Source: Anabaena sphaerica FACHB-251 (GTDB taxonomy: Bacteria; Cyanobacteriota; Cyanobacteriia; Cyanobacteriales; Nostocaceae). From it: a DNA stretch of 32,000 nt. The notes under the pieces are model-generated. The model made no database searches and had not been told where the DNA came from. It worked only from the letters and a program-made list of their open reading frames with translations. The translations under genes were made by a program, and so were the position numbers. The stretch is from contig NZ_JACJQU010000009.1 in NCBI RefSeq assembly GCF_014696825.1, forward strand, positions 166,094-198,093, written 5' to 3'. Below are positions 14,580 through 25,767 of this stretch, in pieces. How positions within the stretch are numbered: the first letter of the stretch is position 1; every line of letters starts with the position of its first letter.

Positions 14580-14801
14580 GAGATGTATAGGTTTTGTCGA
14601 TTAGAGATCAAGGCTAACTGAGTTAATTCTATCTATAGTTCTTGACCAAAATTGCATTTATCCGTATATTTTAAACTCACAGATGCTGGTTGACCATTCA
14701 ATCTAAGTAATTATACTATTAAACCTCGTGTTATATTTTAGCTGATACAATGTCTGGATGAACCAAAAGAAAAATTCAGAATATTGCCAGATCGTTTGTA
14801 C

Positions 14802-15602
14802 CTAGAGACTAAACACTTTTTTCAAAGTCTTGATTTTAGTTGTATTAAGACCACATTCAAGCTTAGAAATAGGATTTAAGCTTTTCCATTTACCTTTACT
14901 AGCACTGCAAATAATATCTGCTGCTGTTTCTATATCAACCTTGTCAAAGCCATCTATTTTATTTTGGGATAAATAATCTAACCGACTAAAAATTTCATCT
15001 CTTGTGGCAATTTTAATACTAATGCTCTCTGGGGGTGGTAAAGGTTGTGAAGTTGATATTGGTGGAGATACAAAGAAAATTTTAGATAGATGATCTAATT
15101 TTTTTCCCTTAGTAATACCGCATTTTAAAGTAGTTATCGGGTTTAAATTTGACCAACTTTCTCGATCTGCTGCTGCAATTTTGTCAGTAGCTATTACAGG
15201 GTCTACACCTTTTAATGCACTAGCTGGTTCAGCAATTAAATATCGCAGTGCTGCTAAAATAATATCTCTTGAAGCTGTAGTTAAATTAATTTTTGGTATA
15301 GCTTCTCTAGCTAAAATTTTCGCTTGTTCAATATTTTGAGATTCTGGGGAAATGACTATACACCAAACACGATCTAAACCAGCTTTTTGAGCAGCCGCAT
15401 AAACCAATTGATTGCTAACTATTTGATATTTGTAATCAGCAATTTCTTGAACAATAGCCGGAATCCAATTGCGTCCATTAGCTTGTAAAATAGCTTCTGC
15501 TGCTGCTGTAACAATAAATTCTGATTCAGAGATTTTTTCACTAGGCTCAATTTCTTTTAAAAGCAGGTGCTTGAGTTTGCCAATATTATCAAAATCGCTC
15601 AT
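14802..15602 (-). CDS. ParB/Srx-like N-terminal domain protein lacking the GERR box, with a duplicated HhH-like C-terminal module
   Basis: WIPAIVQEIADYKYQIVSNQLVYAAAQKAGLDRVWCIVI aligns to the ParB N-domain pattern PIxV...YxIIAGERRxRAAxxAGLxxVPxIV, but GERR is replaced by SNQL. Residues 105-176 and 194-264 are clear duplicates. The start overlaps the upstream gene's stop (ATGA at 15599-15602). Confidence 0.6.
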   Translation of the reverse strand: MSDFDNIGKLKHLLLKEIEPSEKISESEFIVTAAAEAILQANGRNWIPAIVQEIADYKYQIVSNQLVYAAAQKAGLDRVWCIVISPESQNIEQAKILAREAIPKINLTTASRDIILAALRYLIAEPASALKGVDPVIATDKIAAADRESWSNLNPITTLKCGITKGKKLDHLSKIFFVSPPISTSQPLPPPESISIKIATRDEIFSRLDYLSQNKIDGFDKVDIETAADIICSASKGKWKSLNPISKLECGLNTTKIKTLKKVFSL

Positions 15603-16951
15603 AAAATAAAGTATTCCTTCGCTAAATCGAGATAATGTTGTGCAGCAGTAGAATGTTTAAAAGCAGCGGGTATACGATCAAATGCCGCACCTGATACAAT
15701 TGCATAACTTGGTAGAATGAATATTTCTGTATTGGTATTAGCTTTTGTATAGTTAGGCCAAAAGTAAGGTTGTAAATTAATTTGTTTTGATTCTCTTATA
15801 ATAATATCTTGAATTTCTTTATTTGCAGTTTTAAGCTGAGGAGGAGAAATACTTTCTCCATTAAAAAATATAGGTAATGCTATTGGTCCACCATCAGGTC
15901 TAGCTGCTTTAACTTTTGGGATAAAATCTTTAATCACTTTAGCTGCATTCTCTAGAGAAGCTAAATTGTTGTGTTTGGTAGGTATAAGCACAGCATCACA
16001 GGCATACAGGCTACTTTGACTAAAAAACATCCAATTTGTAGGACAATCAATAAATATGTAATCATATTCAGTTTTGAAAATCTTAATAGCATCTCTTAAT
16101 CTAGCAGAACCTTTATCAATTTTTGCAACCAAGTCTTGCTCTGTAAATAATCCCATTTTTGGATCTGCTGGTATAACATCAAATTTTACTGTCTCTCCCG
16201 ATTTGAATTTGACTCCAAAATGTTTAATGGTATTGCGAATATCTAAAGTTCTATCAGCTAGACAATCATATAAACTTATTTTTCCTAATTGTAATCCAAG
16301 GGAATTAGTTAAATCTCCTTGTTGTGGGTCAAAGTCAATTACAAGAACTTTTTTCCCCTTTCGGGTGAGAATTGCTGCTAAATTAACAGTTGTTGTGGTT
16401 TTACCAACACCACCCTTATTGTTGTAAACACAGACAGTCAATGCTTTCGGTGGATTATCAATCAAATTTTTGATGTGAGCAACAATATCATGAATATTGT
16501 CTTTTTTAATTAAAAGACTAGAAGTGGCAGGTACAACAACTTTTCCATGTTTTCTAAATAGCTGGATATGAACTGAATTAGTAATAATGCCCCATTGAGA
16601 TTTTTGACAATTCGGAGAAAGTAAATATCTTTTGATTTGCTCTCTAGCTCTGATGTATTGAGGAGTCCCGTCCGATAAATTAATATTTGCTCCTGCACCT
16701 GTTGCTCGTGCCTTGACTTCGATTAGTAAATAGGGATTAGTTTTGGAAAATGAGAAATTATCACTAACAGCATTCTTGCGAGCGGCAAAATCTACTGTCC
16801 CATTTCCTGTAGAAAATGCTGGAATCTGCTCTTGTTGATTAAATCCCAGTGATTCTATCAGAGGGTCTACAAAACTTTTGCTGATCAGAGCTTCATTACT
16901 CTCATGTGGTAAAATACCATCTAAAATTTGATTCCAGTCTATAGTTACCAT
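15599..16951 (-). CDS. Fusion protein: N-terminal HsdR-N/PD-(D/E)xK restriction-endonuclease-like domain plus C-terminal ParA/Soj-type ATPase
   Basis: The N-terminal 165 or so residues read FVDPLIESLGF...GTVDFAAR...PYLLIEVKAR...QIKRYL...QWGIITNSVHIQLF, the HsdR_N-like D...ExK pattern. The C-terminal part has the deviant Walker A NNKGGVGKTTT (16397-16417), A' VLVIDFDPQ, and Walker B YDYIFIDCP. Confidence 0.7.
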   Translation of the reverse strand: MVTIDWNQILDGILPHESNEALISKSFVDPLIESLGFNQQEQIPAFSTGNGTVDFAARKNAVSDNFSFSKTNPYLLIEVKARATGAGANINLSDGTPQYIRAREQIKRYLLSPNCQKSQWGIITNSVHIQLFRKHGKVVVPATSSLLIKKDNIHDIVAHIKNLIDNPPKALTVCVYNNKGGVGKTTTTVNLAAILTRKGKKVLVIDFDPQQGDLTNSLGLQLGKISLYDCLADRTLDIRNTIKHFGVKFKSGETVKFDVIPADPKMGLFTEQDLVAKIDKGSARLRDAIKIFKTEYDYIFIDCPTNWMFFSQSSLYACDAVLIPTKHNNLASLENAAKVIKDFIPKVKAARPDGGPIALPIFFNGESISPPQLKTANKEIQDIIIRESKQINLQPYFWPNYTKANTNTEIFILPSYAIVSGAAFDRIPAAFKHSTAAQHYLDLAKEYFIL

Positions 16952-17038
16952 TACTTAATTACCAAACAAGAATTTGTATGAAAACTATGGCTTTTTTAGT
17001 TTAACCACATTTGTTACTGGAAGTAAGCCTGTATCTTC

Positions 17039-17115
17039 ACTTATTTTAAATATACTTATTAATATACAAACAGGAAAACTGATAAATTAGGATAAGTATT
17101 TTTATAAGTATTTTT
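17039..17115. promoter_or_regulatory. Cluster of four ATAAGT/ACTTAT motifs upstream of the ParA-fusion operon; candidate operator, iterons or centromere-like site
   Basis: acttat occurs at 17039-17044 and 17054-17059. A tandem 12-mer, ataagtattttt ataagtattttt, lies at 17092-17115. The two pairs are in inverted orientation, 90-165 bp upstream of the ATG at 16951. Confidence 0.35.
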
Positions 17116-17845
17116 ACTAGATATAGCTTAATTACAGTTGCTTGTTTAGGAAACCCACTAGCTGAAGATTGCGGAATAACTAAAAGATTTGCTTGTGCAA
17201 ATCAACATTCATAACTATTTTGTCCGTCAGGGTGTAGTATTTAATGAAGCTAAACCTCAGATACTTAGTTAGGAATTAGCATTGCTTTTAATGTAATAAT
17301 TAAAACAATTTGTAAGAATAATACGTAATTAGCCATAAATATTTTACTCAAATTTCCTAAAACGGATCATCAAGCGTTCAGAAGCGATGCTTCCAAAGTG
17401 CTATAGCTTCGCTCTCTTCGAGACGCTTCGCGAACGCCGCAGGCATCGCACTTTAGCTAAAGTTAAGTGAGGTATTCTTTGTCCCTCAACCGGCTCCACA
17501 GGCAGAGTCAGGTAAAGTAGAATTTATAATTGCTCAGAACCTCCAGTCCTCAACGAAAGAAGGCATCACCCCAGTTACACTTCAGGGATATTTTGAAAAC
17601 TGTAGTCGCCAATTGTGCGTTAGATAAGTTAAAGATGGAAATATCTAAGCAATTTACATTTTGCATTGCCATTTCCAGTCTTCTGGGGCTGACTGTACCT
17701 AAAGTTGAAAGAATTTTCACCCTTTTGGGCAGTTTGTGTAAGGATAAAATCACTGCTTAGGCGTGATATTTCATCTTGACATTTCGCCAAAATTATCTCA
17801 ACTTGACTGTTTAGCTTCAAAGCTATTCTTTTTTTTGAAATTTCC

Positions 17846-21244: not shown

Positions 21245-21722
21245 TGACCTCAAGGTATTGGAGTTAACCTTGGCAATTTTAAGTATTTTAGTACTGCACG
21301 GACCAAACCTCAATTTACTAGGACAGCGAGAACCGGGAATTTACGGTTCTCTCACCCTAGAGGAAATTAACCACTTGTTAGCAGCGGAAGCTTTCAAGTT
21401 AGAGGTTAAGGTTACCGCCTTGCAGTCAAATCATGAAGGAGTTTTGCTGGATGCAATTCACGGGGCATTAGGACAATACCAGGGAATTGTGATTAATGCC
21501 GGGGCATATACTCATACCAGTCTAGCTCTCAGAGATGCGATCGCTGCTGTGAATTTACCTGTAGTAGAGGTACATCTGAGCAATATTTACCGCCGAGAAG
21601 ACTTTCGTCATCATTCTTACATAGCCCCCGTGGTAATTGGCCAAATCAGTGGTTTTGGTGTCCAAAGTTATTTGTTGGGTTTACAAGCACTGGTACATCA
21701 TCTGAAAAAAGATGAAGTTTAA
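21222..21722 (+). CDS. aroQ: Type II 3-dehydroquinate dehydratase
   Basis: [39 protein letters not shown] and HLSNIYRRE are canonical AroQ motifs. The true start is probably the TTG at 21270, preceded by GGAG, rather than 21222. Confidence 0.9.
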
Positions 21723-21769
21723 GAGTATGTGTAGATTTTGGCTTTTGGAAGAAATACTTAAATAAATAT

Positions 21770-21804
21770 AAAATCCAAAATCTAAAATCTAAAATCTAAA
21801 ATTT
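21770..21804. repeat. Heptamer tandem repeat, (AAAATCY)x5
   Basis: aaaatcc aaaatct aaaatct aaaatct aaaattt is read directly, ending 2 nt before the next gene's ATG. Confidence 0.9.
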
Positions 21805-21806
21805 AT

Positions 21807-22739
21807 ATGCGTTATTCTCTCGTAAATCGGGTTAGAGGCACTTTCCTGGGAGCATTGCTAGGGGAAAGCTTAACTACTCAGAATGCTTGTAATTTAGGGG
21901 AAATTGCGGTTCTGGGTAGTGAAAGTTTAATTATATTGGGTAGATTAGATGTAGATGATTGGTTAAAGCGTTGCCAAAAAGCATCCGTTGATTTAGAAAG
22001 TAGTAATACTGCTTGGGCAAAAATAATTTTAGCCGCCTTACCAGTGGCGATTTTTTTTCACGAAGATCCTATTAAACTCAAATACAATTTGCTGCAAGTA
22101 TTACACATTTGGAATCCGCAGCCAGTGGTAACAGATGCGGCTTTAATTATGGGATATGCGATCGCCAAATCTCTGACAGAAAAACTCGATCCTTTGACCC
22201 TTATTTCCCAAACTATTTCTTTTTTGGGAGAAACCGAAACATTATTACCACAAAAATTATTAAAAGTCAATACTTTATTAGAGCAAGGGGCGGGATTAGA
22301 ACAGGCGCGAACCGAATTCAGTAGGCAAGAAAAAATAAGTAACAATATTGCATTAGCCTTTTACTGCTTTCTGAGTACCTTAGAAGATTTCCGGCTGACA
22401 GTTTTGCGGGCTACTGATAATTCTGGAAGGCAAGACTATTGGTATTTAGGCTCTCAGTCCACAGTTGCGTTTACTGGAGCCTTATCAGGGGCATATAACA
22501 GTACATTAGGTATTCCTGTCAATTGGCAAATTTTATTATCATCTGGCGATCAACCAGTATGGGGAATGAGCAGCTTTTCCCAGATGTTAAAGTTAGCTGA
22601 TGCCCTTGTGGCAGTCTGGTCAGGTGCGTATAATATGACTCCAAATACCAAGGAGTTCACAAAAGAAGGATGTGACATAAATTGGGAATTGGCTCCACTT
22701 TCTATCTTCGCTGCACCTCGTGTAATTCGCCCGCGTTGA
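21807..22739 (+). CDS. ADP-ribosylglycohydrolase-like protein with substituted metal-binding motifs
   Basis: The N-terminal NRVRGTFLGALLGESL resembles DRxxGxLLGxAxGDALG. The C-terminal GSQSTVAFTGALSGAYNSTLGIPVNW resembles GGDTDTxAAIAGALAGAxxGxxxIPxxW. The Asp/Thr ligand positions are replaced. Confidence 0.55.
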   Translation: MRYSLVNRVRGTFLGALLGESLTTQNACNLGEIAVLGSESLIILGRLDVDDWLKRCQKASVDLESSNTAWAKIILAALPVAIFFHEDPIKLKYNLLQVLHIWNPQPVVTDAALIMGYAIAKSLTEKLDPLTLISQTISFLGETETLLPQKLLKVNTLLEQGAGLEQARTEFSRQEKISNNIALAFYCFLSTLEDFRLTVLRATDNSGRQDYWYLGSQSTVAFTGALSGAYNSTLGIPVNWQILLSSGDQPVWGMSSFSQMLKLADALVAVWSGAYNMTPNTKEFTKEGCDINWELAPLSIFAAPRVIRPR

Positions 22740-22746
22740 AAAATCA

Positions 22747-22854
22747 GGCGTTGCTAAGAGTATGATTTTGTTTCACGCAGAGGCGCTCCAGTCACAGAGA
22801 GTAAGAGTTTGAAATCATTGATTTTTCAATTTCATACCCTAATTCAGCAACGCC
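22747..22854. mobile_element. MITE-like element of about 108 bp with terminal inverted repeats
   Basis: ggcgttgct..gtatga (22747-22765) pairs with tcatac..agcaacgcc (22832-22854). The interior contains tttcacgcagaggcgc...cacagagagtaagag, resembling short dispersed repeats I associate with Nostoc intergenic regions. Confidence 0.45.
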
Positions 22855-23100
22855 AAAACTTTGTACCTCACGAGCATGGGAACTGCTATATGTATATTTG
22901 GAGTCAACTGCTACAATTGACACAAGCCAATCAGTGAGAGGTTAGTTAATCAACAGTAAATAATCGCTGTGGTATATATAGTCGTTTGGGTTGTCTTGGG
23001 AAAAAACTGTATATAGTAGGTGAGGTTAATAATTCATGGAGCAGTAGTTACGATTGTCTTGTTTTAGGCTATCAAAGTAAGCAACTACCAGCCAGAGGTA

Positions 23101-25767
23101 ATGAAAACGCAGCGATTTTTGCAGTCCTTGACCCGGCAATTGCGGCAATTGCGGCGACAGTACAAAGTGTTATGCCGTCAAGGAAAGTGGCTTGGTTTGG
23201 TGAGCAGTTCCAGGAGTCAAAGTAGTCATAAAAAACTTTTCAGAACGATTATTCGGAATATACTGTTGTATTTATTACCCACTAGTGAGGAAGGTGGACA
23301 CCGACAAGGAAGGAAAGCTCCTCAATCAACTGCAAAATCTTTGACCAGTAATCATGGCATTTATGCAGTTGTTTTCCGCTGGTTACATCAACAGCGTTCT
23401 GCGGTGATTTTGGTCATTGCTGTGGTAACTTTAACAGGTGTAATGGGGCATGAATTATACAACCAGCCCCAGATGAAAATTGGGACTATTGCACCACAAA
23501 CCTTTATTGCTCCATATTCTGCAAGTATCGAAGATCAGCAACAAACGGAAGCAGAACGCAAATTAGCACAGGCGAATTCTCACCCTGTATTGATGATAAA
23601 TACCCAGAAAAATGAGCAAATTAACGAAAATTTGCGCCAACTGCTGGAAGATGCGAATGAACTTCGTGCTATTGCTGGATCTTTTCCTTTTTTCGATGTT
23701 TCAATCTTGTCTATTCCTACCCAGCGATATCTTCGTTCTTGTGTGCCATCAGAATGGGAAAAGCTAAAACTAGCTTTAGAAAATTATCAGAAACAAATTT
23801 ATCCGTCGATACCTAAGTCAAGGACAGCAGACAGATACCAATTTTCTAGGTCGTTGCCTAGTCCTTTGTCACGCTTATCGACAGATGCAATTAAAGAGGA
23901 AAGTAAGATTGGCAAACCTGATTTTGATCAAGCATTAGCAGAACTAAAAGCTTATAGCATCACTACCCCAAATAAAAATCTATCTTTACTTATGACCCAA
24001 ATATCCCAAATCAGAGCAGGATATGGTCAAGCTAGTGCCAAACTTTTACAGATGGAGGCTGAAAGGAAACAAGCAGTATACGGGGAAACGGTGCTTTTGG
24101 ATCTGTCAGATGAAGACTGGACAAAAACACAAATGGGAATCCATCAAAGCGCAGAACGGATACTTACCCAAGGCATACCACCAGGACTACCGCGCAGTAT
24201 TTTACAGGATGCGGTGAATCTACAACTACAACTCTCTGTACCTGGTGAAGCTGAATTCTTAGCAACTAAAGTATTGTTGACTGTACTGCGGCCGAATCTC
24301 CAGCAAGATGTAGAACAAACAAAACAACAGGCTCAACTAGCAGCAGAACAAGTGGCATCTGTAATGCAAAAGGTGCGTCAAGGAGAAGTGATTCTCAAGA
24401 AAGGGGAGCGGATTACAGCATGGAAATTTGATGTCCTGGATTATTATAACTTGAATCGCCGAGAGGTGAATTGGCTGGGTTTGAGTCTTTTAGCAGGTTT
24501 GGTTATTGCTGCTATTGGCGTTTTTGCGTGGGTGGAACGGCGGCTTGGTAGTCATTTGCGAGAAAGCGATCGCTTGTTGATATTACTCCTAACTCTGAGT
24601 ATTCCTAGTGTTTTGGCGATGGGTGTACCTTATGCTACGTGGAGTGCAATCGGTTTATTATTGGGAAGCTTTTACGGCGGTACTTTGGGAGTGACTGTGG
24701 TAGGGCTAATGTCGTTAATACTACCCATTACTATAGAGATTAATAAGATTGGACTAGTCGCTGGTGCTGCGGGGGGAATCTTGAGTAGTTATTTGGCTCA
24801 AAGGTTCAAATCCCGCGAAGAATTGGCGTTATTAGGTATTGTGATTGCTTTAACTCAAGGAAGTATTTATTTATTTCTGAATATACTTGTTGGTGCAGCA
24901 TTTGTTCACGCTTGGTATACGATTCTGCAAAATGCGCTGTTATTTGGTTTATCTGGTTTGGCTTGGAGTATTATCGCTTTGGGTTTAAGTCCTTATCTGG
25001 AAACATTGTTTGATTTAATTACGCCTATCCGATTGGCAGAACTAGCTAATCCTAATCGTGCTTTGTTAAAGCGACTGGCTACGGAAACTCCGGGAACTTT
25101 TCAACATACTTTGTTTGTGGCGACTTTGGCGGAGGCTGCGGCGAAAAAGCTGCGCTGCAATGTTGAGTTGGTCAGGGCTGGGACACTATACCATGATATT
25201 GGCAAAATGCACGACCCATTGGGATTTATTGAAAATCAAATGGGGGGTCCAAATAAACATGAGACGGAAATTAAAGATCCTTGGAAGAGTGCAGCCATTA
25301 TTAAGAAGCACGTAACTGAGGGTTTGGTAATGGCTAAGAAGCATAGTTTACCGACGGCGATTCAAGCTTTTATTCCTGAACATCAAGGAACAATGGCGAT
25401 CGCTTATTTTTATCACCAGGCACAGCAAATGGCTAAGGACGACCCTAGTATCATATTAGATCAAGCTGATTTTTGCTATGATGGACCTATTCCCCAATCT
25501 AGGGAAACAGGAATTGTCATGTTAGCTGATTCCTGTGAAGCCGCGTTGCGAAGTCTTAAAGATGCGACTCCAGAACAAGCATTAAGTATGCTGAATAATA
25601 TTATCCGTGCTAAATGGCAAGAGGGGCAATTGGTAGATTCGGGATTGACGAGGGAGGAAATGCCAAAAATTGCTCAACTTTTTGTGGAAGTTTGGCAACA
25701 ATTTCATCATAAACGTATTGCTTATCCTAAGTCAAAAACTAGTAATGATAAATCGGGTAATAGTTAA
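23101..25767 (+). CDS. 7TM-receptor HD-domain phosphohydrolase (7TMR-HDED/PgpH family)
   Basis: It has a large extracytoplasmic N-domain, about seven transmembrane helices (residues roughly 455-640), and then an HD domain (TFQHTLFVATLAE, LYHDIGK, PEHQGT, MLADSCEAALRS). Confidence 0.9.
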   Translation: MKTQRFLQSLTRQLRQLRRQYKVLCRQGKWLGLVSSSRSQSSHKKLFRTIIRNILLYLLPTSEEGGHRQGRKAPQSTAKSLTSNHGIYAVVFRWLHQQRSAVILVIAVVTLTGVMGHELYNQPQMKIGTIAPQTFIAPYSASIEDQQQTEAERKLAQANSHPVLMINTQKNEQINENLRQLLEDANELRAIAGSFPFFDVSILSIPTQRYLRSCVPSEWEKLKLALENYQKQIYPSIPKSRTADRYQFSRSLPSPLSRLSTDAIKEESKIGKPDFDQALAELKAYSITTPNKNLSLLMTQISQIRAGYGQASAKLLQMEAERKQAVYGETVLLDLSDEDWTKTQMGIHQSAERILTQGIPPGLPRSILQDAVNLQLQLSVPGEAEFLATKVLLTVLRPNLQQDVEQTKQQAQLAAEQVASVMQKVRQGEVILKKGERITAWKFDVLDYYNLNRREVNWLGLSLLAGLVIAAIGVFAWVERRLGSHLRESDRLLILLLTLSIPSVLAMGVPYATWSAIGLLLGSFYGGTLGVTVVGLMSLILPITIEINKIGLVAGAAGGILSSYLAQRFKSREELALLGIVIALTQGSIYLFLNILVGAAFVHAWYTILQNALLFGLSGLAWSIIALGLSPYLETLFDLITPIRLAELANPNRALLKRLATETPGTFQHTLFVATLAEAAAKKLRCNVELVRAGTLYHDIGKMHDPLGFIENQMGGPNKHETEIKDPWKSAAIIKKHVTEGLVMAKKHSLPTAIQAFIPEHQGTMAIAYFYHQAQQMAKDDPSIILDQADFCYDGPIPQSRETGIVMLADSCEAALRSLKDATPEQALSMLNNIIRAKWQEGQLVDSGLTREEMPKIAQLFVEVWQQFHHKRIAYPKSKTSNDKSGNS

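Follow-up and report, generated by a model that had tools for sequence, protein, structure and literature searches.

Background

In a survey of ParA nucleoside triphosphatases (NTPases) in immunity, Li, Burroughs and Aravind defined the effector-ParAB system, a computational prediction that is closely relevant to the locus described here (bioRxiv 10.64898/2026.10.19.760177, 22 Oct 2026). As set out in that preprint, an effector domain, most commonly a restriction endonuclease (REase) but also a HEPN, caspase, TOPRIM or phosphoesterase domain, lies directly N-terminal to ParA, and the operon includes a ParB that is predicted to be inactive and whose C-terminal domain varies, being of the HhH or the Rho-N HeH type. 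Such systems are described as over-represented in multicellular bacteria, for example, cyanobacteria, and the proposal made there is that invader DNA is marked by ParB, which brings in ParA to form a static coat, while the effector serves as a 'force multiplier' or as a back-up suicide device (bioRxiv 10.64898/2026.10.19.760177). Here we analyze a two-gene cassette located in a 32,000-nucleotide stretch of the genome of the cyanobacterium Anabaena sphaerica FACHB-251 (contig NZ_JACJQU010000009.1, positions 166,094 to 198,093 of the forward strand; hereafter, the window, with position 1 at its first letter). The cassette encodes a fusion of a nuclease-type N-terminal domain with a ParA-type ATPase, followed by a ParB-like partner.

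The resemblance of this cassette to effector-ParAB, as the preprint portrays that system, is extensive. Residues 1-165 of the fusion protein form an REase domain directly N-terminal to ParA, and the partner, which is related to ParB_N, is encoded in the same operon with a 4-bp overlap. Moreover, HhH or Rho-N tails are found in homologs of the partner, the cassette is enriched in cyanobacteria, and a variant with a HEPN domain exists (P0198). Unlike the described systems, the partner in the window has no Rho-N tail and contains a repeated middle module instead. Judged from its sequence, the locus matches effector-ParAB in every feature that was testable here and is a putative additional member, of the REase type, of this computationally predicted system; the architecture already appears in the October 2026 preprint, so the novelty is modest. 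The preliminary description of this DNA had regarded the tethering of a nuclease to a nonspecific-DNA-binding ATPase switch as an unusual regulatory logic; the idea itself was right, but the arrangement is not an undescribed one given the REase-ParA fusions reported in the preprint (bioRxiv 10.64898/2026.10.19.760177).

Parts of the cassette also have counterparts in other described systems. The N-terminal domain shares its fold and all four motifs (D, ExK and QxxxY) with the endonuclease domain of the type I restriction subunit HsdR (Pfam HSDR_N and HSDR_N_2; EcoR124I, Vibrio vulnificus), and in both cases a non-specific nuclease domain is tethered to an NTPase. However, the NTPase of the fusion is a dimerizing switch of the ParA/MinD type, whereas that of HsdR is a superfamily 2 translocase and, in contrast to the HsdR systems, the cassette contains no HsdM or HsdS genes and shows no sign of methylation-based self-recognition. 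Assignment of the fusion as a type I restriction subunit was rejected because it has no ResIII/helicase match in Pfam and belongs to a two-gene cassette without hsdM or hsdS that is flanked by ndhB and topA. The N-terminal nuclease domains of the type IIG and type IIL enzymes (BpuSI, PDB 3s1s; DrdV, 7lvv; the MmeI family) are the best structural matches, and two members of the N-domain family match MmeI_N, but the nuclease of those enzymes is joined to a methyltransferase and to a target-recognition domain, neither of which is present in the cassette protein. With canonical ParABS systems (Soj/Spo0J), the cassette shares the deviant Walker A motif, a ParA that is closest in sequence to Soj and the operonic, ParB_N-related partner; it differs in the addition of the nuclease domain, in a partner that scores under the ParB_N cut-off and has no helix-turn-helix (HTH) match, and in being accessory rather than core.

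The N-terminal domain of the fusion protein

The fusion gene is an open reading frame (ORF) of 450 codons on the minus strand, at 15599-16951, of which the first 165 codons (16457-16951) encode the N-terminal domain. The features of this gene, from the N-terminus of the protein, are as follows.

16457..16951, minus strand: PD-(D/E)xK domain with the restriction-endonuclease fold of the HSDR_N_2 type, residues 1-165 (Pfam, hhalign, AlphaFold2, VIA-align)
16892..16894, minus strand: E20, conserved glutamate at the start of helix alpha1 (45 of 57 sequences; aligned to the invariant E of the HSDR_N_2 set)
16790..16792, minus strand: D54, motif I aspartate in strand beta2 (codon position checked; aligned to the invariant D of HSDR_N_2)
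16712..16720, minus strand: E78-V-K80, motifs II and III at the end of strand beta3 (codons checked, E78 at 16718-16720 and K80 at 16712-16714; aligned to the invariant E-x-K of HSDR_N_2)
16625..16639, minus strand: Q105-IKR-Y109, QxxxY motif in the helix after motif III (codons checked; aligned to Q-L-K-S-Y of HSDR_N_2)
15599..16456, minus strand: linker and ParA/MinD-type ATPase part, residues 166-450 (Pfam AAA_31, E 2.2e-33; CbiA; MipZ)
16394..16417, minus strand: deviant Walker A motif KGGVGKTT with the signature lysine K179 and with K184 (from the translation)

Scanned alone against Pfam, residues 1-165 yielded matches to HSDR_N_2 (PF13588; E 4.7e-4, 20.7 bits) and HSDR_N (E 2.7e-3). The match being under threshold, we applied a scan of homologs, profile-profile comparison, structure prediction and a fold search, all of which extend the assignment beyond the single sequence. 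An exhaustive HMMER search over 1.8 billion cluster representatives detected only 100 relatives of the domain at E <= 1e-3, and nearly every full-length one among these is a ParA fusion. Among the 16 domain-only relatives, 11 matched HSDR_N_2 (best E-value, 3.5e-8), four matched HSDR_N and two matched MmeI_N, and two distant fused relatives, P0219 (38 bits) and P0207 (28.6 bits), exceeded the Pfam cut-off for HSDR_N_2 and passed that for HSDR_N as well. We then compared the profile of the N-domain family, using hhalign, with a profile of nine genuine HSDR_N_2 domains gathered from cyanobacterial genomes, and the two aligned over 89 columns with a probability of 98.0% and an E-value of 2.3e-13. 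This alignment pairs E20, D54, E78-x-K80, Q105-x3-Y109 and T124-N125 with the E, D, E-x-K, Q/Y and T-N-G positions of HSDR_N_2, and in the nine genuine domains the E, D, E, K, Y, T, N and G columns are invariant.

The AlphaFold2 model of the domain, built from a 48-sequence alignment, has a mean predicted local distance difference test score (pLDDT) of 96.6 and a predicted template modeling score (pTM) of 0.91. It consists of a helix (20-34), three strands (42-47, 52-57 and 75-79), a second helix (97-110) and a further strand (120-124), that is, the canonical alpha-beta-beta-beta-alpha-beta topology, in which D54 sits on core strand 2 and E78 and K80 at the end of core strand 3. A Foldseek search of the PDB with this model returned the type IIG enzyme BpuSI as the top match (E 2.1e-4), followed by other proteins of the restriction-endonuclease fold, HsdR of EcoR124I and Hjc resolvases. 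Superposition with VIA-align gave a Z-score of 12.5 for BpuSI residues 6-167 (140 aligned residues, root-mean-square deviation 3.4), 10.2 for DrdV, 10.1 for the Vibrio vulnificus HsdR fragment (3h1t) and 7.8 for EcoR124I HsdR. The structural neighbors of the independent model of the domain in the ESM Atlas carry HSDR_N, HSDR_N_2 and BpuSI_N. In a survey of the PD-(D/E)xK superfamily, HSDR_N/HSDR_N_2 and the BpuSI group are families 48 and 49 (PMC3424549).

Some of the comparisons were negative. A sequence search of PDB chains with the N-domain, either as a single sequence or as a 16-sequence profile, produced no match, and NCBIfam contained none for the N-domain or for the ParB-like partner; an hhalign comparison with a single HsdR-like protein encoded in this genome fell short of significance (E 0.13), even though it aligned the ExK and QxxxY motifs. 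At the level of the family, the profile evidence for the PD-(D/E)xK fold is significant, and residues 1-165 are confirmed as a PD-(D/E)xK domain of the HSDR_N_2 type.

Conservation of the catalytic positions

Conservation was assessed in a set that consisted of the query and 56 cluster representatives (57 sequences altogether) and extended down to approximately 27% identity. The aspartate D54 is present in all 57 sequences, E78 in 55 and K80 in 54, and the QxxxY motif is nearly as constant (Q105 in 55 and Y109 in 52). Other conserved positions of the N-domain are G121 (57/57), N125 (56/57) and E20 (45/57). Given that the mean column identity in a similar alignment of 47 relatives was only 27%, these positions rank with the best conserved in the domain. 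The QxxxY motif was defined by Sisakova et al. in HsdR and in RecB-family nucleases, in the helix immediately after motif III (PMC2475608), and Q105-x3-Y109 occupies the corresponding place, within helix 97-110. The glutamate E20 may contribute to metal binding. Neither the QxxxY motif nor the conserved glutamate of helix 1 figured in the preliminary description.

That description had placed the D, E and K of a candidate catalytic triad at D54, E78 and K80, and the codon coordinates bear out this numbering. It had also proposed that the order of secondary structure elements is that of the N-terminal domain of type I restriction subunits and Mrr-like nucleases, and the AlphaFold2 model agrees, with helix 20-34 ending just before L35-G36-F37, D54 in strand 52-57, E78 in strand 75-79 with K80 next, helix 97-110, and WGIIT forming strand 120-124; the structural comparison with EcoR124I HsdR recommended there gave, as detailed above, a Z-score of 7.8. 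Its claim that the triad is preserved holds among the homologs as well, with each of the three residues aligned to an invariant residue of HSDR_N_2; the pattern exceeds what chance would give. The two outcomes named there as refuting the idea, a lack of significant PD-(D/E)xK profile matches and a loss of the D/E/K positions among homologs, were both checked, and neither was observed.

The exceptions are few. Two full-length sequences, P0189 and P0193, lack the triad, and the third deviation at K80 comes from P0168, a fragment of 123 amino acids. Retention of the motifs across the standard architecture is the pattern expected for an active enzyme, and we infer that the domain is probably an active nuclease.

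The ParA domain and variant architectures

The C-terminal part of the protein is an ATPase of the ParA/MinD type, with ParA beginning at residue 171. Its nearest relatives among solved structures are Soj and ParA proteins, and a search of the PDB with the full-length profile found only ParA-type chains. In 47 full-length relatives, K179 is present in at least 90% and no variation occurs at G180, G181, G183, K184, T185, D208, D302 or D319, so the ATPase of the fusion appears to be functional. The AlphaFold2 model of the full-length protein has a pLDDT of 94.6 and a pTM of 0.93, the latter of which indicates a defined, apparently rigid packing of the nuclease and ParA domains in the model via a conserved linker (P141, helix 153-165 and P167-P168). 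A match of the fusion protein to the PADLOC model PDC-M28B was dismissed, being confined to the P-loop.

Several relatives depart from the standard architecture. In P0189 (1268 amino acids), a superfamily 1 (SF1) helicase (AAA_11/AAA_12) is fused upstream of the N-domain and ParA, and the D/ExK triad is degenerate; P0193, in which the triad is lost, has an N-terminal extension of approximately 85 residues without a Pfam assignment. A second SF1 helicase fusion related to P0189, P0220 (1065 amino acids), comes with a separate DUF559 nuclease, and P0198 (668 amino acids) combines HEPN_Swt1 with the N-domain and ParA. The fusions with HEPN_Swt1 and with DUF559 and the SF1 helicase look like variants of the kind involved in biological conflicts, and we count them in favor of the effector-ParAB interpretation.

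The ParB-like partner

The second gene of the cassette and the cassette as a whole are delimited as follows.

14802..15602, minus strand: degenerate ParB_N-like partner gene, 266 amino acids (ParB_N E 1.1e-3, under the cut-off)
14688..17523, no strand: inserted cassette of approximately 2.8 kb, comprising the two genes and 572 bp upstream, between ndhB and topA (homology breaks in comparison with G158)

The partner ORF has 266 codons, and its 4-bp overlap is with the stop codon of the fusion gene. Along with the sub-threshold similarity to ParB_N, Pfam detected no HTH match in this protein. The partner lies directly downstream of the fusion in 26 of the 27 full-length loci with short flanks and is adjacent or nearby in 17 of the 18 intact loci with long flanks, including the most remote ones (27-33% identity). 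Counted within the 17 is the locus of Chroococcopsis gigantea (L001), where two small ORFs on the opposite strand intervene between the fusion and the partner; the remaining locus, L120 (G137), has an ABC-transporter ATPase after the fusion gene and no partner was found nearby. On the strength of both sets of loci, we call the pairing of the fusion with the ParB-like gene obligate.

The 19-member alignment of the partners consists of 18 true partners and one unrelated ABC ATPase. Among the 18, a C-terminal HeH tail of the Rho_N type was detected in 11 (best E-value, 4.9e-9), HhH in one and a weak ParB_N match in eight. The partner in the window has no Rho_N/SAP-like tail, and in its place is a second copy of a middle module of approximately 70 residues that has no Pfam match; the repeated module is also found in the partners of L123, L133, L121, L118 and L119. 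At the presumed position of the ParB arginine box (I-A-G-E-R-R), the consensus of the partners reads V-I-x-N-x-F-V-Y-A, an equivalence that derives from the weak Pfam alignment.

Insertion site, distribution and mobility of the cassette

In the same-genus genome G158 (L114), ndhB and topA are divergent neighbors 452 bp apart, and the DNA of ndhB is 93% identical to that in the window, where the distance between the two genes is 3.3 kb. Homology to G158 breaks at position 14687 and resumes at 17524, and the cassette is therefore an insertion of approximately 2.8 kb. Its GC content is 0.34 compared to approximately 0.42 in the flanks; it contains no HIP1 sites, which is weak evidence given that a stretch of 2.8 kb would be expected to have approximately 1.8. 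The genome G312 (L134) carries a decayed copy of the cassette, with several stop codons, at this ndhB-topA site, and G020 (L115) has an unrelated ORF of 755 codons there. Across the compared genomes, the interval between ndhB and topA is a site of variation. A scan for promoters and terminators gave results at the level of chance.

The domain was found in 55 of the 401 cyanobacterial genomes searched and in eight of 45 in the window's own family; it is present in a single copy in this genome and was not found in the one other same-genus genome searched. Copies of the cassette reside on three cyanobacterial plasmids, one of which, the 35.7-kb plasmid NZ_CP091922.1 of Nostoc sp. UHCC 0870 (L140), carries it at 21543-23606, adjoining a site-specific integrase. 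Besides the cassette, this mobilizable plasmid has genes for a separate ParA, for ParM/StbA and for a ParDE pair, as well as a dynamin-family/patatin-like gene cluster. Elsewhere, the A. sphaerica genome contains two canonical pairs of ParA (265 amino acids) and ParB (323 and 366 amino acids) genes, at G000 C2:49419-50515 and C31:17480-19402, and 23 matches to AAA_31-type ATPases in total. The patchy distribution, the insertion, the copies on plasmids and the separate ParA-ParB pairs show that the cassette is accessory and mobile and is not a core partition system; assignment as a housekeeping partition system was rejected because of the patchy distribution and the island insertion.

The N-domain is 60-62% identical to the copies in another family of the same order (f3), compared to only about 50% in the sampled genomes of its own family, which hints at horizontal transfer between cyanobacterial families. 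The ESM Atlas includes a cluster of 439-amino-acid ParA proteins that is most common in Spirochaetota and in which the N-terminal part matches the N-domain model at a TM score of 0.81, so that the fusion extends beyond the cyanobacteria.

Possible mechanism and alternative explanations

The combination of an HSDR_N_2-type nuclease domain, ParA and a translationally coupled, degenerate ParB-like gene is, in our assessment, somewhat likely to represent a cassette of the effector-ParAB kind with a predicted role in defense against mobile elements. ParA and Soj proteins form ATP-dependent sandwich dimers, bind DNA non-specifically and have an ATPase activity that is controlled by ParB, and it is because of this established behavior that the steps of a mechanism can be suggested. 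Conceivably, the ParB-like protein would mark the target DNA, be it a phage, a plasmid or an unusual DNA structure, via its DNA-binding tail and engage the ParA domain, whereupon ATP-bound ParA would assemble on the marked DNA as a sandwich dimer or a higher assembly. This would gather the fused nuclease domains, perhaps in pairs, on the substrate, which they would cut; either the invader would be destroyed or, as a back-up, the host's own genome would be damaged, with dormancy or death as the consequence. A bolder version, which we offer tentatively and consider rather doubtful, is that sandwich dimerization of ParA licenses cleavage by pairing two otherwise inactive monomeric REase domains on partner-marked DNA, so that a double-strand break results; under this ATP-gated, FokI-like logic, the partner would control ATP turnover and hence the time window for cutting. 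ATP-gated dimerization is a more specific proposal than the 'force multiplier' or back-up effector role envisaged in the preprint.

Certain observations weigh against the effector-ParAB interpretation. The immune function is a comparative-genomics prediction of one preprint; the N-domain of the fusion itself falls under the Pfam gathering threshold for HSDR_N_2 (20.7 compared to 25 bits); PADLOC models match neither the nuclease domain nor the partner; the cassette was not found in the phage genomes searched; and it is located between housekeeping genes, with no recognizable defense island. In addition, conserved residues that look catalytic can also serve in metal-dependent DNA binding without cleavage. 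This last consideration leads to a different interpretation, which we regard as unlikely, namely, that the nuclease fold is kept as a non-cleaving module for DNA recognition or anchoring, any defense being achieved by the coating of target DNA with ParA and ParB. PD-(D/E)xK domains are sometimes reused for binding, and the helicase-fused P0189 tolerates loss of the triad; the preprint likewise makes static ParA/ParB coating the main action and the effector an optional extra (bioRxiv 10.64898/2026.10.19.760177). However, the near invariance of D54, E78, K80, Q105 and Y109 is the pattern of an active enzyme, whereas inactive relics usually lose such residues, and the fact that the same slot in related systems is filled by other enzymes (HEPN, caspase, TOPRIM) argues that the slot is an enzymatic one.

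The association with plasmids suggests another function, to which we give a similarly low probability: the cassette could be a module for the maintenance or competition of mobile DNA, that is, a ParAB-derived stability, incompatibility or addiction system whose nuclease would kill cells or rivals that lose or lack the element, rather than a host defense system. Compatible with this are the copies on the three cyanobacterial plasmids, one of which, the only one examined in full, has the cassette beside an integrase, the origin of the genes from ParAB and the character of the chromosomal copy as a low-GC inserted island. Yet a separate ParA and a ParM system are already encoded on the 35.7-kb plasmid of Nostoc, the chromosomal island includes no replication or integration genes, and the ParB-like protein has no HTH match and apparently has lost the arginine box, to the extent that the weak Pfam alignment allows; furthermore, decayed copies exist without evident consequence. 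Such decay, in the form of the pseudogene in G312, also speaks against a housekeeping factor of chromosome segregation or repair in filamentous, polyploid cyanobacteria, an explanation that might otherwise draw on the location between ndhB and topA and on the wide spread among filamentous forms but that seems to us very improbable. The presence in only 55 of 401 genomes, and in eight of 45 in the family, the absence of the domain from the search results for same-genus G158, in which ndhB and topA are neighbors, and the canonical ParAB pairs elsewhere in the genome all point away from it, and this interpretation is largely refuted by the distribution. Defense by an effector-ParAB-type cassette with an active nuclease thus is the interpretation that we favor, at the strength given above.

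Implications

A practical consequence concerns annotation: in these genomes, an unannotated nuclease domain that narrowly misses the Pfam threshold is present in proteins labeled 'AAA family ATPase', 'ParA family protein' or 'cellulose biosynthesis protein BcsQ'. The cassette is common in filamentous cyanobacteria, in which defense systems have been little studied experimentally, and it is compact, with proteins of 450 and 266 amino acids, confident structural models and clear candidate residues for point mutation (D54, E78, K80 and K184). Provided that the nuclease proves active and under the control of the ParA ATP cycle, this would be the first experimentally tractable case of a ParA-type ATPase that acts in prokaryotic immunity via a fused effector.

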